A stretch of 64,000 nucleotides of DNA from Escherichia phage vB_EcoM_TU01. The stretch is taken from sequence record MZ560701; one strand, given 5' to 3'. Position 1 is the first letter of the stretch, and the number at the start of each line of letters is the position of its first letter. The position numbers and the translations under genes are program-made. Shown here one piece after another: positions 3,177 through 63,466 of this stretch. The notes under the pieces were generated by a model. The model searched no databases and had not been told where the DNA came from. It saw nothing but the letters and a program-made list of their open reading frames with translations.

Positions 3177-3199
3177 GGGGACTTCGGTCCCCTTTTTTT
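3177..3199 (+). terminator. intrinsic terminator after rIIB
   Basis: GGGGAC-TTCG-GTCCCC hairpin followed by T7. Confidence 0.8.
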
Positions 3200-9202: not shown

Positions 9203-9404
9203 TTCTAAAGCAGATTATTTTAATTCTGTTAATGATAAGAATAAAGCTTTAATTCGCCACTTTATTACTGAGATGGGATATACCGACTCTAAAGATTTGA
9301 AAGAGCATATTATCGAATGTTCTGTGGCTAAAAAGTTTTCTTTCACTGATAAATGTTTAAACGAGGTTATAAAGCATTATGAACAATCTTGTAGCAAAAC
9401 ATGA
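9189..9404 (+). CDS. hypothetical protein
   Basis: 71-aa ORF. Confidence 0.55.
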   Translation: MRIIDSKADYFNSVNDKNKALIRHFITEMGYTDSKDLKEHIIECSVAKKFSFTDKCLNEVIKHYEQSCSKT

Positions 9405-9487
9405 TTTCAATAAGGCTTCCGTCCATAAGGACAAGAAGAAATCAGAACTTCAATCTAAACGTAAACAAAAACATAAGGGTAAAGACT

Positions 9488-9787
9488 ATGCTTACTAAAA
9501 TCAAAGAAAATCCTGCCACTGAACTTGTTATTCGTTGTGAAGAACTTGCAGAGCTTTATCAGGTTAACCGAGAAGTATATCGTAGTGTTGTTGCAGATAT
9601 GGCAGATGAAGTATGTTCTCGTATTCCTTTTAGTGTTGATTTCAATCACATGAAGCCTGGTGAAATCACTATCGTCTTTGGTTCTGACTATACTGAAGAA
9701 CGGGCTCTTAATGCCCTAGAATATGAAATGTCGTTCTTCGACATACAGGACTATATTGATAGTTATAAGGAACGATATGAGTCATAA
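9488..9787 (+). CDS. hypothetical acidic protein
   Basis: about 99 aa from the internal ATG; alternative upstream start 9401 (ATGA overlap); acidic C-terminus. Confidence 0.5.
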   Translation: MLTKIKENPATELVIRCEELAELYQVNREVYRSVVADMADEVCSRIPFSVDFNHMKPGEITIVFGSDYTEERALNALEYEMSFFDIQDYIDSYKERYES

Positions 9788-35699: not shown

Positions 35700-36692
35700 A
35701 TGTTACCTGTCGTCGGAAAACTTATTTCTCCAAAAGAACTGGCTGAGATTATTCCTTTGTCGGAAGCTTACGCATCACAAGTGGCTTCTCATCGCGAACA
35801 AGTTAATTCGATTATGAACGGTGAAGACCCACGCAAACTTATTGTTGTAGGTCCTTGTTCAATTCATGACCCTATTGCTGCTGTTGAATACGGCAAACGT
35901 CTGGCTGAACTTCAAACTCGTCTTCCTAATGTTCTGTTAGTGATGCGCGTTTATTTTGAAAAGCCTCGAACTACCGTAGGTTGGAAAGGTCTTGTAAATG
36001 ATCCATATCTTGACGGAAGTTTTGATATGAACCACGGTCTTATAGTTGCACGAACATTGTGTCGTAAACTTCTACGTATGGGACTTCCATTAGCAACTGA
36101 AGTATTAGACCCATTCACGATTAAGTATCTTTCTGGTATTTTCTCATGGGTTGCTATTGGCGCCCGTACGACTGAAAGTCAGACACATCGTGAAATTGCT
36201 TCAGGTCTACCGATGTGCGTAGGCTTCAAGAACGCAACCAATGGTTCTATTAAAGTAGCTACAGACGCGATGTATAGTGCCGCCTGGCCTCATCGGTATA
36301 TGGGTATGGACGTCGATGGTACTGTAGGCATTGTTGAAGCTGAAGGTAATCAGAATACGCATATCGTATTGCGTGGCGGGACCAACGGCCCGAACTATCA
36401 TTCTTCTGATATTCAAGAAGCTTCTAACAAAGCAAGGGCAGTAGGTCTGAATCATTATGTAATGGTTGACTGTAGCCATGCAAACGCTGATGGGCATTAT
36501 AGCAATCAAATTGGTATTGGTAAAAATTTAGCAGCTAATGATTTGGTTAAAGGAATTATGATAGAATCATTCCTACATGAAGGAAATCAAAAAATTTCTG
36601 ATAATATGTCCTATGGCGTTTCCATTACCGATGCGTGCATCAGTTGGGAACAAACTAAAGAGCTGTTAACTTATATTAATAAGGTTCAATAA
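35700..36692 (+). CDS. 3-deoxy-7-phosphoheptulonate (DAHP) synthase, class I AroG/AroF-like
   Basis: 330 aa; GPCSIHDP, VMRVYFEKPRTTVGWKGLVNDP, GARTTESQTHREIASGL, KNATNGSIKVA, DCSHAN, ESFLHEGNQ, SITDACI align with E. coli AroG including the metal ligands; AAGGA RBS; stop overlaps cd start. Confidence 0.92.
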   Translation: MLPVVGKLISPKELAEIIPLSEAYASQVASHREQVNSIMNGEDPRKLIVVGPCSIHDPIAAVEYGKRLAELQTRLPNVLLVMRVYFEKPRTTVGWKGLVNDPYLDGSFDMNHGLIVARTLCRKLLRMGLPLATEVLDPFTIKYLSGIFSWVAIGARTTESQTHREIASGLPMCVGFKNATNGSIKVATDAMYSAAWPHRYMGMDVDGTVGIVEAEGNQNTHIVLRGGTNGPNYHSSDIQEASNKARAVGLNHYVMVDCSHANADGHYSNQIGIGKNLAANDLVKGIMIESFLHEGNQKISDNMSYGVSITDACISWEQTKELLTYINKVQ

Positions 36693-55123: not shown

Positions 55124-56638
55124 TTATAAATTAATTGTTTTCATTACATAGTTAAATTTCTCATCAGCGTAACGTTGGATACGATCAATACCGTGTTTTA
55201 ACAAGTAATTAAGATGAGTATACTTCTTTTTAGTATTTAATGATTTAGGTTTTACACCTGCGTCATCGATGAGATCCCAAACTGTAGCAACAGCTTTAGA
55301 ACCGTGCTTACGAAGCACACGACCTACGGTTTGAAGTACGATAATTTTTGATTTAACACCATGGGCGAAAATAACATGATGAAGATTCTTGACTGAAATA
55401 CCAGTAGAGAATACTCCATATGATGCGACAATAATAATGCCTTTACCATTTTCTGCCATGACTTTAAGCGCGTTACGTGTTTCAGTATCAACTTCACCTG
55501 ATACGTAATAAACTTTTTCGTATCCAAGCTCTTTAATAGCTTCAAATATTTCTTTACCGTGTGTAACGTGTTTAAACATTACAAAGGCGTTCTCGTCTTT
55601 CTTAGCCAATTTGACTGAAAGTTGAGCAATCCACTTTGTACGTCGTTTTAGTCCGGTAATAATTTTAACTTCTTCTTGGTATGTTTTACCTTTTAATTTA
55701 ACGGTGAATTCGTCCGGATAACGAAGGAAAATACTATTAATCTTAAGCTCAGTTACCTGTCCGTCTTCCATTAATTTAGACGTACTAACAGGACGGAAGA
55801 TTTCGCCGAACATACCTACGTACTGCATTACGTTGGCTTTTCCGTCTCTTAATGAGCCAGATAAACCGAATTTAAACATGCAATTATTTAATCCAGAGAT
55901 GATTGAAGAAATACTTTTGCCTGTTGCTAAGTGGCATTCATCGTTCATCATCATACCGAACTGAGAGAACCATTCTTTAGGCTGCTTAACTACCGTTTGC
56001 CATGTGCCAACAATAATTGGAGCGTCGTTTTTAGCTCTGTCTGCTTTATCAGCACCACCGCCAATTTTCTTAATCATCGAATGACTAAACAAGCGATAAT
56101 CAACAAAATCATTAGCCATCTGGGTTGTCAATGCTGTTGTAGGGACGATAATGAGAATTTTACCTTCATAGTTCTCTAGATAATATCGAGCTAAAAGTGC
56201 TTGGATTAGTGATTTACCTGCTGATGTCGGAAGGTTTAAAATTCGACGACGATTAACTAGTCCTTCATATACTGCATCTTTTTGATACCAATGTGGTTCG
56301 ATTTTGGAGTTGCCTGAATAAATTTCTTGTTTAGAAAGCCATGCGTCAAAATCTTCCCTGGTAAGGTCTTCGGTCTCAAAGATTTTAGGGTCAATCCATA
56401 CAGAATAACTCATATTGTTACAGAACTTTTTTATTTGTCCTACAAGTCCATATGGTAACAAACGGTTGTAATCTAAAAGTCGAATTCTACCATCCCATTG
56501 CCCATAGCGATATTTTGGGTTAAATTTATACCCGTCAGCTTCAAAGCTAAAAAAGTCACGAAGTTCGTAAAACGTACTTTCGTCGCATTCAATGCGCACG
56601 TGACTAAAATCATAAAAATGTACTTTAATGTCAGTCAT
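55124..56638 (-). CDS. uvsW: UvsW SF2 DNA helicase
   Basis: 504 aa; Walker A TSAGKS, DECH box, motif VI; matches T4 UvsW. Confidence 0.95.
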   Translation of the reverse strand: MTDIKVHFYDFSHVRIECDESTFYELRDFFSFEADGYKFNPKYRYGQWDGRIRLLDYNRLLPYGLVGQIKKFCNNMSYSVWIDPKIFETEDLTREDFDAWLSKQEIYSGNSKIEPHWYQKDAVYEGLVNRRRILNLPTSAGKSLIQALLARYYLENYEGKILIIVPTTALTTQMANDFVDYRLFSHSMIKKIGGGADKADRAKNDAPIIVGTWQTVVKQPKEWFSQFGMMMNDECHLATGKSISSIISGLNNCMFKFGLSGSLRDGKANVMQYVGMFGEIFRPVSTSKLMEDGQVTELKINSIFLRYPDEFTVKLKGKTYQEEVKIITGLKRRTKWIAQLSVKLAKKDENAFVMFKHVTHGKEIFEAIKELGYEKVYYVSGEVDTETRNALKVMAENGKGIIIVASYGVFSTGISVKNLHHVIFAHGVKSKIIVLQTVGRVLRKHGSKAVATVWDLIDDAGVKPKSLNTKKKYTHLNYLLKHGIDRIQRYADEKFNYVMKTINL

Positions 56639-56667
56639 GTCAAATTACCATGTAATAAATATAATTA

Positions 56668-56675
56668 TATTTATA
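56668..56675 (-). promoter_or_regulatory. late promoter of uvsW
   Basis: TATAAATA on the - strand about 30 nt upstream of uvsW. Confidence 0.65.
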
Positions 56676-56688
56676 ATGAGGAAATACC

Positions 56689-57357
56689 ATGATCGATAAA
56701 GACTATATTGAAGAGTTACGTGCTCTTTCTGATAAAAAGGAAGCCAAAGCTAAACTGTTTGAATACGCGGCACAATTTGGCATTAGTGTTAAGAAAACAA
56801 AATCATTCGATAATATTGTTATTGATATCGAAGAAGCTCTTAACGCACTGGCTGATGAACCATTACCTGAAACTGATGGATTATCTATCACCGATTTAAT
56901 TACTGCCGCAGATGATGTGGACGGTGTTAATTTCACCAACGAAGAAGTTAAAGAAGAAGCTATTCTGTTGTTTGATTCTCCAACAGAACAAGTTGAAGTA
57001 TTAGAAGTTGTCGAACAAGAAAAAGAATTCGACCATGATAAATTCGAAGAAGCAATTACTCAGGTTGTTGAATCTGAAAAAGAGCCTGAGACAGAGGTAA
57101 ATAAAGAAGTAAAATTTGTTCTGCCTGAAAATTTTAGTCCTACACTCATTAAATTAGGCAAAGGCCCAGGATATGTTACTGTTCCTTGGTGGATTTATCA
57201 ATGGATAGCCGAAACCCCAGATTGGAAATCTCGCCCAACTAGTTTTGTGCATGCTTCTGCTCACCAAACATTATTTAGCTTAATTTATTATATTAATCGC
57301 GATGGATCAGTTCTAATTCGTGAAACTCGTAATTCTTCTTTCGTAACATTAAAATAA
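56689..57357 (+). CDS. inh: Inh, inhibitor of prohead protease gp21
   Basis: 222-aa acidic protein between uvsW and hoc (T4 Inh 226 aa). Confidence 0.8.
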   Translation: MIDKDYIEELRALSDKKEAKAKLFEYAAQFGISVKKTKSFDNIVIDIEEALNALADEPLPETDGLSITDLITAADDVDGVNFTNEEVKEEAILLFDSPTEQVEVLEVVEQEKEFDHDKFEEAITQVVESEKEPETEVNKEVKFVLPENFSPTLIKLGKGPGYVTVPWWIYQWIAETPDWKSRPTSFVHASAHQTLFSLIYYINRDGSVLIRETRNSSFVTLK

Positions 57358-57366
57358 GGATAACTT

Positions 57367-58497
57367 ATGGCTTTTACAGTTGATATAACTCCTAAAACAC
57401 CTACTGGAGTTATAGATGAGACTAAGCAGTTTACTGCTACTCCCAGTGGTGAAACTGGAGGTGGAACTATTACCTATGCTTGGAGTGTAGACGATGTTCC
57501 TCAAGATGGAGCTGAAGCAACTTTTAGTTATGTANTAAAAGGACCTGCTGGTCAAAAGACTATTAAAGTTGTTGCAACAAATACNNTTCCTGANTCTGAA
57601 GCTGAAACAGCTGAAGCTNCTACAACTATCACAGTTCAAAATAAGACACAGACAACTACCTTAGCAGTAACTCCCAATAGTCCTTCAGCTGGAGTAATTG
57701 GAACCCCAGTTCAATTTACTGCCGCCTTAGCTTCTCAACCGGTTGGNGCATCTGCTACGTATCAGTGGTATGTAGATGNTTCNCAGGTTNGTGGAGAAAC
57801 TAACTCTACATTTAGCTATACTCCTACTACAAGNGGAGTAAAAAGAATNAAATGTGTAGCTCAAGTAACAGCGACAGATTATGATGCAAAGGAAGTTACT
57901 TCTAATGAAGTATCATTAACAGTTAATAAGAAGACAATGAATCCACAGGTTACATTGACTCCTCCTTCTATTAACGTTCAACAAGATGCTTCGGCTACAT
58001 TTACTGCTAATGTTACTGGCGCNCCTGANGNAGCACAAATTACTTACTCATGGAAGAAAGATTCTTCTCCAGTAGAAGGGTCAACTAATGTATATACTGT
58101 TGATACCTCATCTATTGGAAGTCAAACTATTGAAGTTACTGCAACTATTACTGCAACTGATTACGATAGCAAAACTATTACAGCAGAAGGTCAAGTTCAG
58201 GTAACTGATAAAGTTGCTCCGGAACCAGAAGGTGAACTACCTTATGTTCATCCTCTTCCACATCGTACTTCAGCTTACATCTGGTGCGGTTGGTGGGTTA
58301 TGGATGAAATCCAAAAAATGGCTGAAGAAGGTAAAGATTGGAAAACTGAAGATCCAGATAGTAAGTACTACTTGCATCGTTACACACTTCAGAAGATGAT
58401 GAAAGATTATCCGGAAGTTGATGTTCAAGAATCACGTAATGGATACATCATCCATAAAACTGCTTTAGAAACTGGTATCATCTATACATATCCATAA
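57367..58497 (+). CDS. hoc: Hoc, highly immunogenic outer capsid protein
   Basis: 376 aa (T4 Hoc 376 aa); tandem Ig-like domains, conserved C-terminal capsid-binding region. Confidence 0.9.
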   Translation: MAFTVDITPKTPTGVIDETKQFTATPSGETGGGTITYAWSVDDVPQDGAEATFSYVXKGPAGQKTIKVVATNXXPXSEAETAEAXTTITVQNKTQTTTLAVTPNSPSAGVIGTPVQFTAALASQPVXASATYQWYVDXXQVXGETNSTFSYTPTTXGVKRXKCVAQVTATDYDAKEVTSNEVSLTVNKKTMNPQVTLTPPSINVQQDASATFTANVTGXPXXAQITYSWKKDSSPVEGSTNVYTVDTSSIGSQTIEVTATITATDYDSKTITAEGQVQVTDKVAPEPEGELPYVHPLPHRTSAYIWCGWWVMDEIQKMAEEGKDWKTEDPDSKYYLHRYTLQKMMKDYPEVDVQESRNGYIIHKTALETGIIYTYP

Positions 58498-58503
58498 TCG
58501 TAA

Positions 58504-58530
58504 GGGGCTTCGGCCCCTTTCTTCGTTTTT
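58504..58530 (+). terminator. intrinsic terminator after hoc
   Basis: GGGGC-TTCG-GCCCC then T-rich tract. Confidence 0.75.
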
Positions 58531-58592
58531 AAAGCATACAAAACACAACTTGAGATTGATGTATATAATGGCACAAACCAAATAATACGGGA

Positions 58593-58793
58593 TTGATTAT
58601 GAGAGCTGAAGTTGAAGTTTATACATTACATGAGGCGGGATTTTCATTCGTAGAAATTGCTCAAAAAATCGGTTTACAACCTAAAGAAGTTGGATTACTA
58701 TGGACTAAAGCCGAGACAGCTCGGTCAAAGTTTAAAGCAAAAGAAAAAGTTGTATACCGTAAACGTTTGATTAACAAAAAGGTGAAGAAATGA
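58593..58793 (+). CDS. small helix-turn-helix protein
   Basis: 66 aa; HTH-like FSFVEIAQKIGLQPKEV then a basic tail. Confidence 0.55.
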   Translation: MIMRAEVEVYTLHEAGFSFVEIAQKIGLQPKEVGLLWTKAETARSKFKAKEKVVYRKRLINKKVKK

Positions 58794-59041
58794 GTTTTGC
58801 ACAGGAATTAAGAGAAAGGGCCCTGGCCACTAAAGCCAATTTGTTGAAAGATTTTATTACTAACTTCTCTGTGATGGCAGAGAAAGCCGCTGACAAAGGT
58901 CAGACACAATTTACGTACTATCCGTCAAAGAATGATTTAACTATCACCGAGCAAATCGGGCAGTGGTTCCGTGATAACGGCTTTCAGTACAAAATTAATC
59001 ACGACCAGCGTGATGGGCACTGGATAGAAATCAAGTTCTAA
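58790..59041 (+). CDS. hypothetical protein
   Basis: 83-aa ORF, coupled start. Confidence 0.6.
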   Translation: MSFAQELRERALATKANLLKDFITNFSVMAEKAADKGQTQFTYYPSKNDLTITEQIGQWFRDNGFQYKINHDQRDGHWIEIKF

Positions 59042-59043
59042 TA

Positions 59044-59069
59044 TGCTTTACATTTTTTGATGGTATAAT
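59044..59069 (+). promoter_or_regulatory. MotA-dependent middle promoter of rnlB
   Basis: MotA box TGCTTTA, 13 bp, TATAAT. Confidence 0.6.
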
Positions 59070-59160
59070 GAATCTAGGTTCTATCCATTCAAATTAAACA
59101 TTGGGCCAGAGATAGAGTCTCTGCTAATTATTTTGATATTATTATTTATAATGGTGATTT

Positions 59161-59880
59161 ATGTTTAAGAAATACAGCAGTCTTGAAAACCACTACAACT
59201 CTAAGTTTATTGAAAAACTCTACACTAATGGTTTGACTACCGGTGTTTGGGTAGCACGTGAGAAAATCCATGGGACCAACTTCTCGTTAATAATTGAACG
59301 TGACAACGTCACATGCGCCAAGCGCACAGGCCCTATTCTTCCAGCAGAAGATTTTTATGGTTACGAAATCGTACTCAAGAAGTATGATAAAGCTATTAAA
59401 GCCGTTCAGGAATTCATGTACACAGCTCGAGCCGTATCATATCAAGTATTCGGTGAATTCGCTGGTGGTGGAATCCAGAAAGGTGTTGACTACGGTGAAA
59501 AAGATTTTTATGTGTTCGATATCCTTATCAATACAGAAAGTGGTGATAATACGTATTTGACCGATTACGAAATGCAAGATTTCTGTAATGAATTCGGTTT
59601 TAAAATGGCACCAATGCTTGGTCGTGGCACATTTGATGCTCTTATCATGATTCCAAATGACCTTGATTCTGTCTTAGCCGCTTATAATGCTACTGCGTCA
59701 GAAGACCTTGTAGAAGCAAATAATTGTGTATTTGATGCTAATGTTATTGGTGATAATACTGCAGAAGGTTATGTTCTGAAGCCCTGTTTCCCTAAATGGC
59801 TGCCAAACGGTACTCGTGTAGCTATTAAGTGCAAGAACTCTAAATTCAGTGAAAAGAAAAAGTCTGATAAAGCCTATTAA
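59161..59880 (+). CDS. rnlB: RNA ligase 2, N-terminal nucleotidyltransferase domain (gene split by frameshift)
   Basis: 239 aa; adenylation motif KIHGTN; ORF stops where the T4 Rnl2 C-terminal domain should continue. Confidence 0.85.
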
Positions 59881-60160
59881 AACTCAGGTTCCGTTAACCG
59901 AAATTGACAAAAACTTGCTTGATGTTCTAGCTTGTTATGTTACATTAAATCGTATTAATAATGTGATTTCTAAGATTGGGACTGTAACGCCAAAAGATTT
60001 TGGCAAAGTGATGGGATTGACTGTTCAAGATATTCTGGAAGAAACTTCTCGTGAAGGTATTGTATTAACATCATCTGATAATCCGAATCTTGTTAAGAAA
60101 GAATTAGTCCGAATGGTGCAAGATGTTCTGCGTCCTGCATGGATTGAATTAGTATCATAA
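59849..60160 (+). CDS. rnlB: RNA ligase 2, C-terminal domain fragment (+1 frame)
   Basis: overlapping +1-frame ORF continuing as an Rnl2-like C-terminal domain; no independent RBS. Confidence 0.7.
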
Positions 60161-60168
60161 CGAAAAAA

Positions 60169-60192
60169 GGGACCCTACGGTCCCTTTTTTTT
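60169..60192. terminator. bidirectional terminator between rnlB and gene 24
   Basis: A6-GGGACC-CTAC-GGTCCC-T8 between convergent genes. Confidence 0.85.
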
Positions 60193-61474
60193 ATTCATCA
60201 ATAATAATTTTNGGNANNTTAACACCGAGTAAAACAGACAAGTCTGAACGTCCTGCCATTTTATCCATGTCCCCACCATCAATTATTCTCGCTTCTTTTT
60301 CGTCTTTTGCTACTGTGTAAGGATTTGCTGATAAAGCATATCTAACCAATAATCCGATAGACGGTTGCAAGCTTTCTGGATCAACTACAACTTTAAAAGC
60401 ACCGACGTGTTCCGGGTCATCTAAATCTACTCCTTCAGTGTATGGAGCATAAAAGATGGACCCTACAATTTCTTTTTCGCCGATATTTTCTACAACACCC
60501 ACAATAACATAATCTAACGGACTGTTGGTATCGCAGTAAAGAGGTAATCCATTTGCCAAGAATCCATAAGCATTTTGTGAAAGATACTTGTCATCTTCTG
60601 GCTTATGTTTTAACCAACCGGAAGCAGCAAGAATAGCAGCTGCACGAGCTGAGGCTACACAAAACGTTGCAGTATAAGTTGTCTCTTTTTGAATGTGTGA
60701 TACCATTTCACACACCATTCGATATAATGAACGACCTGCTTCTGGAGCGGATGCATAGCTCAAGTCAATAAATCCGGTGTCAGTAATTCCAGTAACTTTA
60801 TAACGTTTCGATACAGTAATTAAAGACTGAAGGATATCTTTATTAATTTCATCAGCCATTTCAGTAGCAAGCAAATCTTCTAAGAAGTTAGGGGCATCAA
60901 ATCCATTCGCTTCCAAATCTTGCGCTAATTCAACCGTGAGACCAGTTTTAAGTTTACGAGATTTGACTGAAGTTTGCCATTTATTAATCTGGAATCTTGC
61001 ATCAGAAATTTCGCTATCAGAGCTTTCAAATTTGCTTGTTACCGCTGCATCTGAAAATAACCGTACCTTTAAATGAACGACTGCAATCTGAAGAGCTAAT
61101 TCTAGATCACTTTCTTGAATATCTGCAAATGGTGTATCTTCTAACACTTTATAGACGATATTATTATATTTGAAAAAATCGCCTTTATTTAGTGTGACTT
61201 TTGATTCTTCTGTGAGCTCAGTAATTTTTTCTCGGTCTACATATCCAACTTCGCCCGCATAAGTAGCACCAGTTTTAAATGTGAATTCGTTATCTGGGTT
61301 AAGATATTTGATACCATAAAAAGCAGCAACAGGTTGATTAGTTCTTTGTGTTGCTACAATGTCAGAATATATTAATTTAGTCGTAGCGCGAGTCAAAGCA
61401 ACGAGATTTGGGCGACCAACTGAGTTGCTAGTAGACGTTGTAGATTCACGCAATAATTTTTGGATTTTACTCAT
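60191..61474 (-). CDS. 24: capsid vertex protein gp24
   Basis: 427 aa (T4 gp24 427 aa); gp23-like fold. Confidence 0.95.
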   Translation of the reverse strand: MSKIQKLLRESTTSTSNSVGRPNLVALTRATTKLIYSDIVATQRTNQPVAAFYGIKYLNPDNEFTFKTGATYAGEVGYVDREKITELTEESKVTLNKGDFFKYNNIVYKVLEDTPFADIQESDLELALQIAVVHLKVRLFSDAAVTSKFESSDSEISDARFQINKWQTSVKSRKLKTGLTVELAQDLEANGFDAPNFLEDLLATEMADEINKDILQSLITVSKRYKVTGITDTGFIDLSYASAPEAGRSLYRMVCEMVSHIQKETTYTATFCVASARAAAILAASGWLKHKPEDDKYLSQNAYGFLANGLPLYCDTNSPLDYVIVGVVENIGEKEIVGSIFYAPYTEGVDLDDPEHVGAFKVVVDPESLQPSIGLLVRYALSANPYTVAKDEKEARIIDGGDMDKMAGRSDLSVLLGVXXXKIIIDE

Positions 61475-61501
61475 TGCATTTTTTCCTTATGTGATATAGA
61501 T

Positions 61502-61509
61502 TATTTATA
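61502..61509 (-). promoter_or_regulatory. late promoter of gene 24
   Basis: TATAAATA on the - strand about 28 nt upstream of gene 24. Confidence 0.75.
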
Positions 61510-61515
61510 AAGATT

Positions 61516-61545
61516 GTTTACAACGTATTTGGTATGTGATACTAT
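61516..61545 (+). promoter_or_regulatory. early promoter for the 24/23 intergenic ORF
   Basis: GTTTAC, 18 bp, TGtgaTACTAT. Confidence 0.6.
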
Positions 61546-61575
61546 AGACTTATCAACTACAGAGGAGTAAACAAA

Positions 61576-61845
61576 ATGACTAAAGCACGTTTCTTACGAG
61601 ATACTTTAAAAGTTCTGGAAGCTGAAGCAGTTAAGTTAGTAGAAAAATATGGTGCAAAAGTTAATGGTAATGCCTTCAACAAAGTATGGATGAAAGTTGA
61701 TTCCGAAGCTCGAGCTAAAGGTTATTGGGCCACTGATAAACTTGCGTCATTCAAAAACAAAGATGGTTCTCTGGCATATGTCCAAGAAGGTATGCCTAAT
61801 TGGCAAAATATTTTGAAAACTTACATTGAAATTGCACAGAAATAA
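61576..61845 (+). CDS. hypothetical protein (at the T4 segD position)
   Basis: 89-aa ORF between 24 and 23 with its own early promoter; no GIY-YIG or HNH motifs. Confidence 0.65.
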   Translation: MTKARFLRDTLKVLEAEAVKLVEKYGAKVNGNAFNKVWMKVDSEARAKGYWATDKLASFKNKDGSLAYVQEGMPNWQNILKTYIEIAQK

Positions 61846-61855
61846 AACCAAAAAT

Positions 61856-61873
61856 GGGAGACCGAAGTCTCCC
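61856..61873 (-). terminator. intrinsic terminator after gene 23
   Basis: GGGAGAC-UUCG-GUCUCCC on the - strand followed by a U-run. Confidence 0.8.
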
Positions 61874-61897
61874 AAAATAAGATTTAATCAATTAAGA

Positions 61898-63466
61898 TTA
61901 GATGCCTTTTACATATACACGGCGGAAGTAAGCGTTCTTACCAAGGCTGTTCAGGATAGACGGCATACCGGACTGGATGCGAGCACCTGGAGCCTGCAGG
62001 GAACTTTCAGCAAACGGGTTAACACCGATACCGTAACGAGTTTTAAAGCCCATTACCGGCTGGAAGTTCTTAGGATCGGAACCACGCAGTGGGGTAAGTG
62101 CAACGTAAGGAGCATAGTAAATACCTGCATCCATTTCGTTAGCGCCTTTGTAACCAACGGTGAAGTAATCCTGTTTAGCATACTGGTCGATGTATACGCG
62201 GTATTTACCACCAAGTACACCGGCAAATACAGACTTAGTAGTGTCGGTATTAAAACCAGAAGCCAGACCCTGTGCAGCGTAAGAAATACCAGTGTCAACT
62301 GAAGCCAGTACGTTAACTACGTTACGGGAAGCGATAATGAAGTTACCTTCACCACGACCGGTTTGACGAGCAATTTCAACTGCTTCTTTATCAATCTGGA
62401 ACAACAGAGATTTAAAGCTTTCACCGGCCCAACGAGCACCACGGATATCAATCGGGTCCTGGAAGTCAAATACGCCAGCTTTAGAACCCGGAGTCAGGGT
62501 CATACCAGATTTACCAACCTGTGCCGAGTAGTTAATCCAATCAACAACTTCACGGTTGATTTCTAGCATAATTTCAGTAGCCAGAATACCGCTCAGTTCA
62601 GCATCAGCATCCATACCGTGTACTGCACGGAGGTCTTGTGCTAATTCGATAGAGTAAGCAGCTTTCAGCTGGCGAGATTTAGCTTCGATAACTTGTTTAT
62701 CGATACGGAAGCCCATTTCATTCCATGGGTTATCGGTAGAACCGTTGAAACCTTCCTGGAGTTCAGCGATAGAAGTAGCCATACCTTCAGCGATTTCTAC
62801 CAGTGCACCAGCTTCCATTTGTTTCTTAACTTCTGCATCTAATTTAGCTGCATCAGTTGCACCAGAATCAAGTGTTACGACAGCAGAAGCTTGCAGATAT
62901 ACAGTACCAGTTTCTTGGAAGAAGTGAGTATAGATATCACCTACAACAGTAGTAGTGTCAGCAGCCAGAGCTGGGAATTTCTTAGCAGCACCCTGACCAG
63001 AGAACATCGCGTCTGGGGCATACATCGGATGGAAAGCTTCTTTAGCGCCAGCAGCGATAGGGTCTTTACCATATACTGCACGGAGAGCAAATACCTGACC
63101 GGTAGGGCTGTTCATAGGCTGAACACCACAAATATCAAAAGCGATCAGATTAGGAATAGCACGACGAACCATACCCATAACTGCTGGCCCAATTTGGGTT
63201 ACTGCACCAGAGGTTTGACCTGCTGCGATGTTCTGAGCATTATAACCGTGGTCACCACCAATTTCAGCTTCGGTCAAGAAAGAACCAAATGCCTGAGCGA
63301 TTTTCTCGTCTTTATATTCAGGGGATACTTCGAAATCTTTTTCCTGGTTTTCGAAGATTTTAGCGATAATAGCCTGCTTGCTATTAGCGATTTCCGGCAG
63401 GCCTTCACCTTCCAGCAGTTCTTTCCATTTGTCTACGAGCTGAGCTTTAGTTTTGATAGTAGTCAT
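61898..63466 (-). CDS. 23: major capsid protein gp23
   Basis: 522 aa (T4 gp23 521 aa); followed by a strong hairpin terminator. Confidence 0.97.
   Translation of the reverse strand: MTTIKTKAQLVDKWKELLEGEGLPEIANSKQAIIAKIFENQEKDFEVSPEYKDEKIAQAFGSFLTEAEIGGDHGYNAQNIAAGQTSGAVTQIGPAVMGMVRRAIPNLIAFDICGVQPMNSPTGQVFALRAVYGKDPIAAGAKEAFHPMYAPDAMFSGQGAAKKFPALAADTTTVVGDIYTHFFQETGTVYLQASAVVTLDSGATDAAKLDAEVKKQMEAGALVEIAEGMATSIAELQEGFNGSTDNPWNEMGFRIDKQVIEAKSRQLKAAYSIELAQDLRAVHGMDADAELSGILATEIMLEINREVVDWINYSAQVGKSGMTLTPGSKAGVFDFQDPIDIRGARWAGESFKSLLFQIDKEAVEIARQTGRGEGNFIIASRNVVNVLASVDTGISYAAQGLASGFNTDTTKSVFAGVLGGKYRVYIDQYAKQDYFTVGYKGANEMDAGIYYAPYVALTPLRGSDPKNFQPVMGFKTRYGIGVNPFAESSLQAPGARIQSGMPSILNSLGKNAYFRRVYVKGI

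Follow-up and report, generated by a model that had tools for sequence, protein, structure and literature searches.

[quoted passage not shown]

RNA ligase 2 (Rnl2) of phage T4, the product of gene 24.1 (rnlB), is composed of an N-terminal domain (residues 1-243) and a C-terminal domain (residues 244-329) (PMC3149579). [quoted passage not shown] The biological role of Rnl2 in infection has been stated to be unknown (PMC3884662). A truncated form, Rnl2(1-249) (PDB 1S68), is used in the laboratory as an adapter-ligation enzyme. In T4, rnlB lies between 24.2 and gene 24, and it has the same location in the DNA analysed here, a stretch of 64,000 nucleotides from Escherichia phage vB_EcoM_TU01 (MZ560701; the window hereafter), where the gene is interrupted by one extra A. 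TU01 comes from Kathmandu and was sequenced with Illumina HiSeq and CLC Genomics Workbench (reads SRR5460626, BioProject PRJNA383466); the genome closest to it, according to its authors, is that of phage JS09, with 98.04% identity (PMC9117343).

The gene order in this part of the window is uvsW, inh, hoc, 24.3, 24.2 and rnlB, followed by gene 24 and gene 23 on the opposite strand. The first part of rnlB (59161..59880, + strand) is an open reading frame (ORF) of 239 amino acids that encodes the adenylyltransferase domain (Pfam RNA_ligase PF09414, residues 30-223, E 2e-23) and ends at a premature TAA (59878-59880). It contains the motif I sequence KIHGTN (59263..59280, + strand, codons 35-40), which is identical in the alignment with T4 Rnl2 and whose lysine aligns with residue 35 of the T4 enzyme, which we take to be the adenylated lysine. 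The KCKNSKF segment is kept as well, upstream of the break, and the hallmarks that the Rnl2 family has in this adenylyltransferase domain, KxHGxN in motif I and the lysines of motif V, are present. The second part (59849..60160, + strand) is an ORF of 103 amino acids in the +1 frame, counted from a GTG at 59849 and with its stop codon at 60158-60160, which holds a complete Rnl2 C-terminal domain (Pfam T4_Rnl2_C PF18043, E 1.2e-23). Between 59837, or an even earlier position, and 60160 the +1 frame has no stop, and its translation includes RPAWIELVS; the two frames overlap without stops over at least 44 nt. The Pfam matches on both ORFs place the identification of a split rnlB far beyond chance. 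The two ORFs are identical to the TU01 proteins QYC95510.1 and QYC95511.1, respectively; TU01 is a Mosigvirus, and further exact matches to its proteins were found for Inh (QYC95506.1) and gp29 (QYC95495.1).

The C-terminal domain is complete but out of frame, and it is fused to the N-terminal domain only after one A is removed. This repair gives a protein of 332 amino acids, a length found in RB69-like phages and in the relatives of the window, compared with 334 in T4. The repaired protein and T4 Rnl2 (PDB 2HVQ, with the related entries 2HVR and 2HVS; E 3e-170) can be aligned over their full lengths, with KIHGTN, KCKNSKF and the whole C-terminal domain conserved, and the former also matches Rnl2(1-249) (PDB 1S68; E 1.9e-120). 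A previous reading of the same DNA, made from the sequence only, had named the gene as that of RNA ligase 2, had placed the end of the KIHGTN-containing domain at 59880 and had located the C-terminal domain in the +1 frame from about 59849. These three assignments are confirmed by the comparisons above, and its estimate of about 334 amino acids for the restored ORF has to be replaced by 332.

Two putative regulatory elements flank the gene. A candidate T4-type middle promoter (59044..59069, + strand), recognized by eye and sitting just past the stop codon of 24.2, is composed of a MotA-box-like TGCTTTA (59044-59050), 13 nt and TATAAT (59064-59069), an arrangement resembling the T4 middle-promoter consensus. 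Downstream, between the convergent rnlB and gene 24, a hairpin (GGGACC-CTAC-GGTCCC; 60163..60192, no strand assigned) flanked by an A-run and a T-run is probably a bidirectional terminator. Relatives such as PhAPEC2 and ATK47 have a terminator annotated at this position, and a pattern scan of the window did not include the hairpin among its listed features.

The lesion itself (59869..59871, + strand; GATAAGCC changed to GATAAAGCC) consists of AAA where the aligned relatives have AA. RB69, NHEP36, mar005p1, pEB20, HX01 and pEK20 all read GATAAGCCTATT at this place and the window reads GATAAAGCCTATT; in codons, the seven relatives aligned have GAT AAG CCT and the window has GAT AAA GCC. The extra A lies in the Lys codon directly before Pro-238, in the linker between the domains, and the break after Lys-237 corresponds approximately to Lys-239 of T4 Rnl2. 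The sequence-only reading had proposed the removal of one nucleotide near 59872. Either deletion restores the frame, but the surplus base is one A of 59869-59871 and not specifically the G at 59872. It had also pointed to an A-rich run preceding the junction, and such a run, GAAAAGAAAAAG, does exist at 59851-59862; as it is identical in the seven aligned relatives, the change is not located there.

The comparison with the rnlB genes of close relatives, which had been proposed as a check, showed that they have one base fewer and an intact gene spanning the junction. Among 171 phage records, a 100% match to the 61-nt junction was found only in KF582788.2 and NC_024124.2, both of them JS09; among the matches listed, the other phage records span 60 nt. 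Intact rnlB genes of 332 or 335 amino acids are present in all of at least 20 further genome or metagenome contigs (retrieved by exact matches to neighbouring or repaired proteins), and almost all relatives found among the roughly 5.8 billion protein clusters searched have 327-340 amino acids and both domains. The gene is also intact in pEK20, which is classified in the same species as JS09. Exact-pattern scans of IMG/VR gave no match for the junction with the extra A, nor for the junction without it, and therefore say nothing about the frequency of either form. The repaired ligase with an Ile to Val exchange is widespread, and the 10 places shown for it are all NCBI genomes; exact look-ups of TU01-specific proteins (the truncated ligase, Inh, gp29 and the repaired ligase) found none outside NCBI.

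In JS09 the gene is likewise split and annotated as RNA ligase 2 (JS09_0267 and JS09_0268); its extra A, its coordinates (59161-59880) and its premature stop are those of the window. An ATG at 60011 is taken as the start of the second piece in JS09 (CDS 60011-60160), in contrast to the TU01 protein, which is counted from GTG 59849. The split of rnlB is already annotated in both public records and is no new biological feature. The identical coordinates had suggested that the window might be an older version of the JS09 record. This was rejected, since almost all JS09 proteins in KF582788.2, the split ligase included, are still at version.1 and the proteins of the window match TU01 accessions exactly.

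The likeness between both genomes extends well beyond this gene. By megablast the window maps to JS09 (KF582788.2 and NC_024124.2) at identical coordinates, with no gaps over 1-50000 and 56100-63200 (about 57 kb) and with about 2% substitutions plus Ns. Against pEK20, 60 gaps were counted, and other relatives at 96-98% identity differ from the window by 2-17 gaps in a 4-kb comparison. In substitutions JS09 (98.3% identity) is no nearer to the window than several other Mosigvirus genomes (98.1-98.2%), which likewise counts against an independent origin of the extra A in the window. The window contains 688 Ns, of which 208 are single and others form eight runs of at least 10 nt (13-99 nt); all eight runs hold the exact register of JS09, a weaker point if these runs were introduced as later masks. 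When 58590-61480 was aligned with 20 relatives, seven substitutions proved to be private to JS09, and none of them is found in the window; the one indel column private to JS09, the extra A, is found there. The nearest private substitutions of JS09 that are absent from the window lie 108 nt upstream and 464 nt downstream of the extra A. Carry-over from a reference would be recognized by two features, and both are found here: gap-free collinearity with one genome where natural relatives differ by many indels, and the presence of a private indel of that genome together with the absence of its private substitutions.

Some local patterns of these alignments can be mentioned. Of the seven private substitutions of JS09 in these 2.9 kb, six are concentrated in a 210-nt stretch of the part of rnlB that encodes the N-terminal domain (59553-59763), and the six private codons that JS09 has in this part of the gene are all synonymous; JS09 may have acquired this small patch, located just upstream of the extra A, by recombination with a lineage that has not been sampled. 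The scattered single Ns of the window cluster in the Ig-like repeats of hoc (57535-58031) and at the 3' end of gene 24 (60212-60218), where relatives vary in sequence or in intergenic length. Reads aligned in conflicting ways when the TU01 consensus was made could account for these clusters. Elsewhere in the window (35700-36692), JS09 and pEK20 annotate a phospho-2-dehydro-3-deoxyheptonate aldolase (DAHP synthase) between cd.2-like ORFs and dCMP deaminase, an auxiliary metabolic gene that, to our knowledge, is absent from T4 itself.

Taken as a whole, rnlB is probably broken by a non-programmed single-base insertion that, in TU01, was carried over from a reference genome. The deposited TU01 genome looks like a reference-guided consensus, and its extra A, judging from the alignments, is probably not independent of that of JS09: the sharing of the only private indel but of none of the seven private substitutions, together with the gap-free alignment, suggests that the base was inherited from JS09. 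The TU01 consensus would have been built on a JS09 scaffold, with substitutions and Ns called and indels left as in the reference, and the extra A would have entered it by this route instead of being read from phage DNA. In JS09 itself, the base would be an error of base calling or else a null mutation, private and recent. Against carry-over counts that the TU01 paper names no assembly reference (PMC9117343). Indels of 1 nt are called by the usual consensus tools, so that it is the gap-free pattern, and nothing else, that points to indels left uncalled. An artefact was among the options of the sequence-only reading and is now the best supported of them, given that the only other genome with the extra base shares the coordinate system of the window.

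It is possible, though doubtful, that JS09 has undergone a genuine frameshift mutation in recent times, present in TU01 perhaps by way of a short recombined patch, in which case only the 239-amino-acid domain would be made and, rnlB being dispensable for growth, the loss would be tolerated. JS09 is viable, has been propagated and is much used in experiments, and sequencing errors that persist in a consensus do not typically affect a run as short as AA to AAA. In the comparison with pEK20 the extra A is also the only private frame-breaking indel in the 64 kb, and the other indel states of JS09 that were checked (at 3197, 9471 and 31789) are natural polymorphisms common to independent records, so that there is no sign of widespread homopolymer errors in the JS09 backbone.

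Moreover, rnlB has been broken independently in other T4-like genomes, and a knockout at this locus would therefore not be unusual. Citrobacter phage CF1 (MG250484.1; 2160-2230 of the compared locus) has lost 1 nt of the gene at codon 221. Two contigs are also affected, that of SRR7124656 (1301-2233 of its locus) by the absence of a segment of about 47 nt and an 11-nt deletion, and that of SRR2566028 (1301-2289 of its locus) by an 11-nt deletion at codon 157. In the three cases an N-terminal and a T4_Rnl2_C piece are present, as in the window, in phage genomes that are otherwise complete. The interruptions have no site, and hence no signal, in common.

Several observations weigh against a genuine mutation. 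The extra A is known from one independent genome only, and since the window has none of the seven private substitutions of JS09, its descent from JS09 would require a recombined patch of less than about 570 nt. The JS09 record has been revised once (its fibritin and gp12 proteins are at version.2), which indicates that the first assembly had errors. The C-terminal domain, finally, shows no decay, which fits an error equally well: that of JS09 is identical to that of RB69 over 95 of 95 residues, and that of the window is identical to those of relatives at 93-94 of 95, with two private changes, one of them synonymous and the other nonsynonymous. No further lesions or relaxed constraint were found downstream of the break, and the frame of the C-terminal domain is open over 103 codons. 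A decaying pseudogene was consequently rejected, and of the pseudogene option of the sequence-only reading, a recent truncating mutation could be genuine and an old pseudogene is excluded.

Other indels of JS09 were considered as possible signs of faulty assembly and discarded. At 9471 the window has an extra A relative to pEK20, and the intact 135-amino-acid ORF of the latter is split around the A-run ending at this position (window 9379-9787) into overlapping ORFs of 39 and 99 amino acids. The same state was found in 52 of 162 records, and on this distribution the split is taken as a natural two-state polymorphism in Mosigvirus. The intergenic homopolymer differences at 3197 and 31789 are likewise common to independent phages and were dropped as candidate errors.

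As written, rnlB would yield the adenylyltransferase domain of 239 amino acids alone. This product is nearly the same fragment as Rnl2(1-249), from which it differs in being about 10 residues shorter and in ending with two foreign residues, A-Y, that are translated out of frame; its origin would be a frameshift and not design. It is very unlikely that the extra A is real and that this lineage naturally makes an Rnl2(1-249)-like domain, with small amounts of the C-terminal domain perhaps arising through re-initiation or when ribosomes now and then slip by +1 at A-AAG. Such a phage would possess, in nature, an equivalent of the truncated ligase obtained by engineering, and its RNA-repair activity during infection would be altered.

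A functional split gene, in which two polypeptides would cooperate in trans, is highly improbable. The second polypeptide would begin at GTG 59849 or at ATG 60011, or would result from re-initiation beyond the TAA. The break lies exactly between both Pfam domains and leaves each of them complete, and two CDSs named RNA ligase are listed in both public annotations. It also speaks for this reading that, in the editing ligases of trypanosomes, a partner protein reportedly promotes RNA binding by the ligase. On the other hand, we know of no report of Rnl2 domains complementing each other in trans, and only one genome lineage has the split arrangement. Anti-Shine-Dalgarno pairing energies at the six in-frame starts of the C-terminal ORF, in addition, lie between -1.6 and +0.6 kcal/mol, none of them stronger than the local average (background mean, -1.3 kcal/mol), compared with -2.8 to -7.1 kcal/mol for 13 real gene starts in the window. 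As far as these pairing energies indicate, the C-terminal ORF would have no credible route to translation on its own.

A comparison can also be made with programmed +1 frameshifting of the prfB type, with which the window has in common an overlap in the +1 frame and a P-site codon able to re-pair. The A-AAG overlap would allow perfect re-pairing of the Lys tRNA and recreates ...SDKPIK... exactly. Unlike a prfB-type shift, the site in the window has no slow or stop codon (the next codon in the 0 frame is GCC, which is neither rare nor a stop in E. coli codon usage), and inspection of the sequence upstream of the shift site revealed no Shine-Dalgarno-like stimulator. No stable structure was found in the 100 nt downstream (fold z-score of 0.09 relative to shuffled sequence), and the conservation among homologues that would be expected of a programmed frameshift is, in the sequences compared, absent. 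The nearby AAAAAG would favour slipping by -1, which was rejected because it leads into the third frame, where there are stops, and transcriptional slippage would need longer A-runs than those of 3 to 5 bases present here. A programmed +1 ribosomal frameshift, in which the Lys tRNA on AAA (59869-59871) would re-pair with AAG (59870-59872) and translation would continue at CCT to give full-length Rnl2, is thus exceedingly improbable, considering that rnlB is a plain in-frame gene in 169 of the 171 records and in at least 20 other contigs, and the frameshift-dependent gene considered by the sequence-only reading is not supported either, for want of stimulatory signal, structure and ribosome-binding site alike.

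Whether the extra A was carried over or is genuine, no recoding mechanism is involved, and the reappearance of a JS09 frameshift in the later and supposedly independent TU01 genome is above all a lesson in data quality. Features of the TU01 genome that depend on indels, such as split genes and ORF lengths, may merely mirror JS09, and counts of independent split genes or recoding sites in phage databases need to be checked for inheritance from a reference.

The biological weight of the finding is small, since at best it represents another knockout allele of a dispensable phage gene. If the extra A were real, the product of 239 amino acids would be expected, by analogy with T4 Rnl2, to carry out steps 1 and 3 still but to be unable to seal nicks. 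The independent interruptions of rnlB at different positions suggest a recurrent loss of Rnl2, and these recurrent disruptions lend modest support to the dispensability of the ligase under common propagation conditions.
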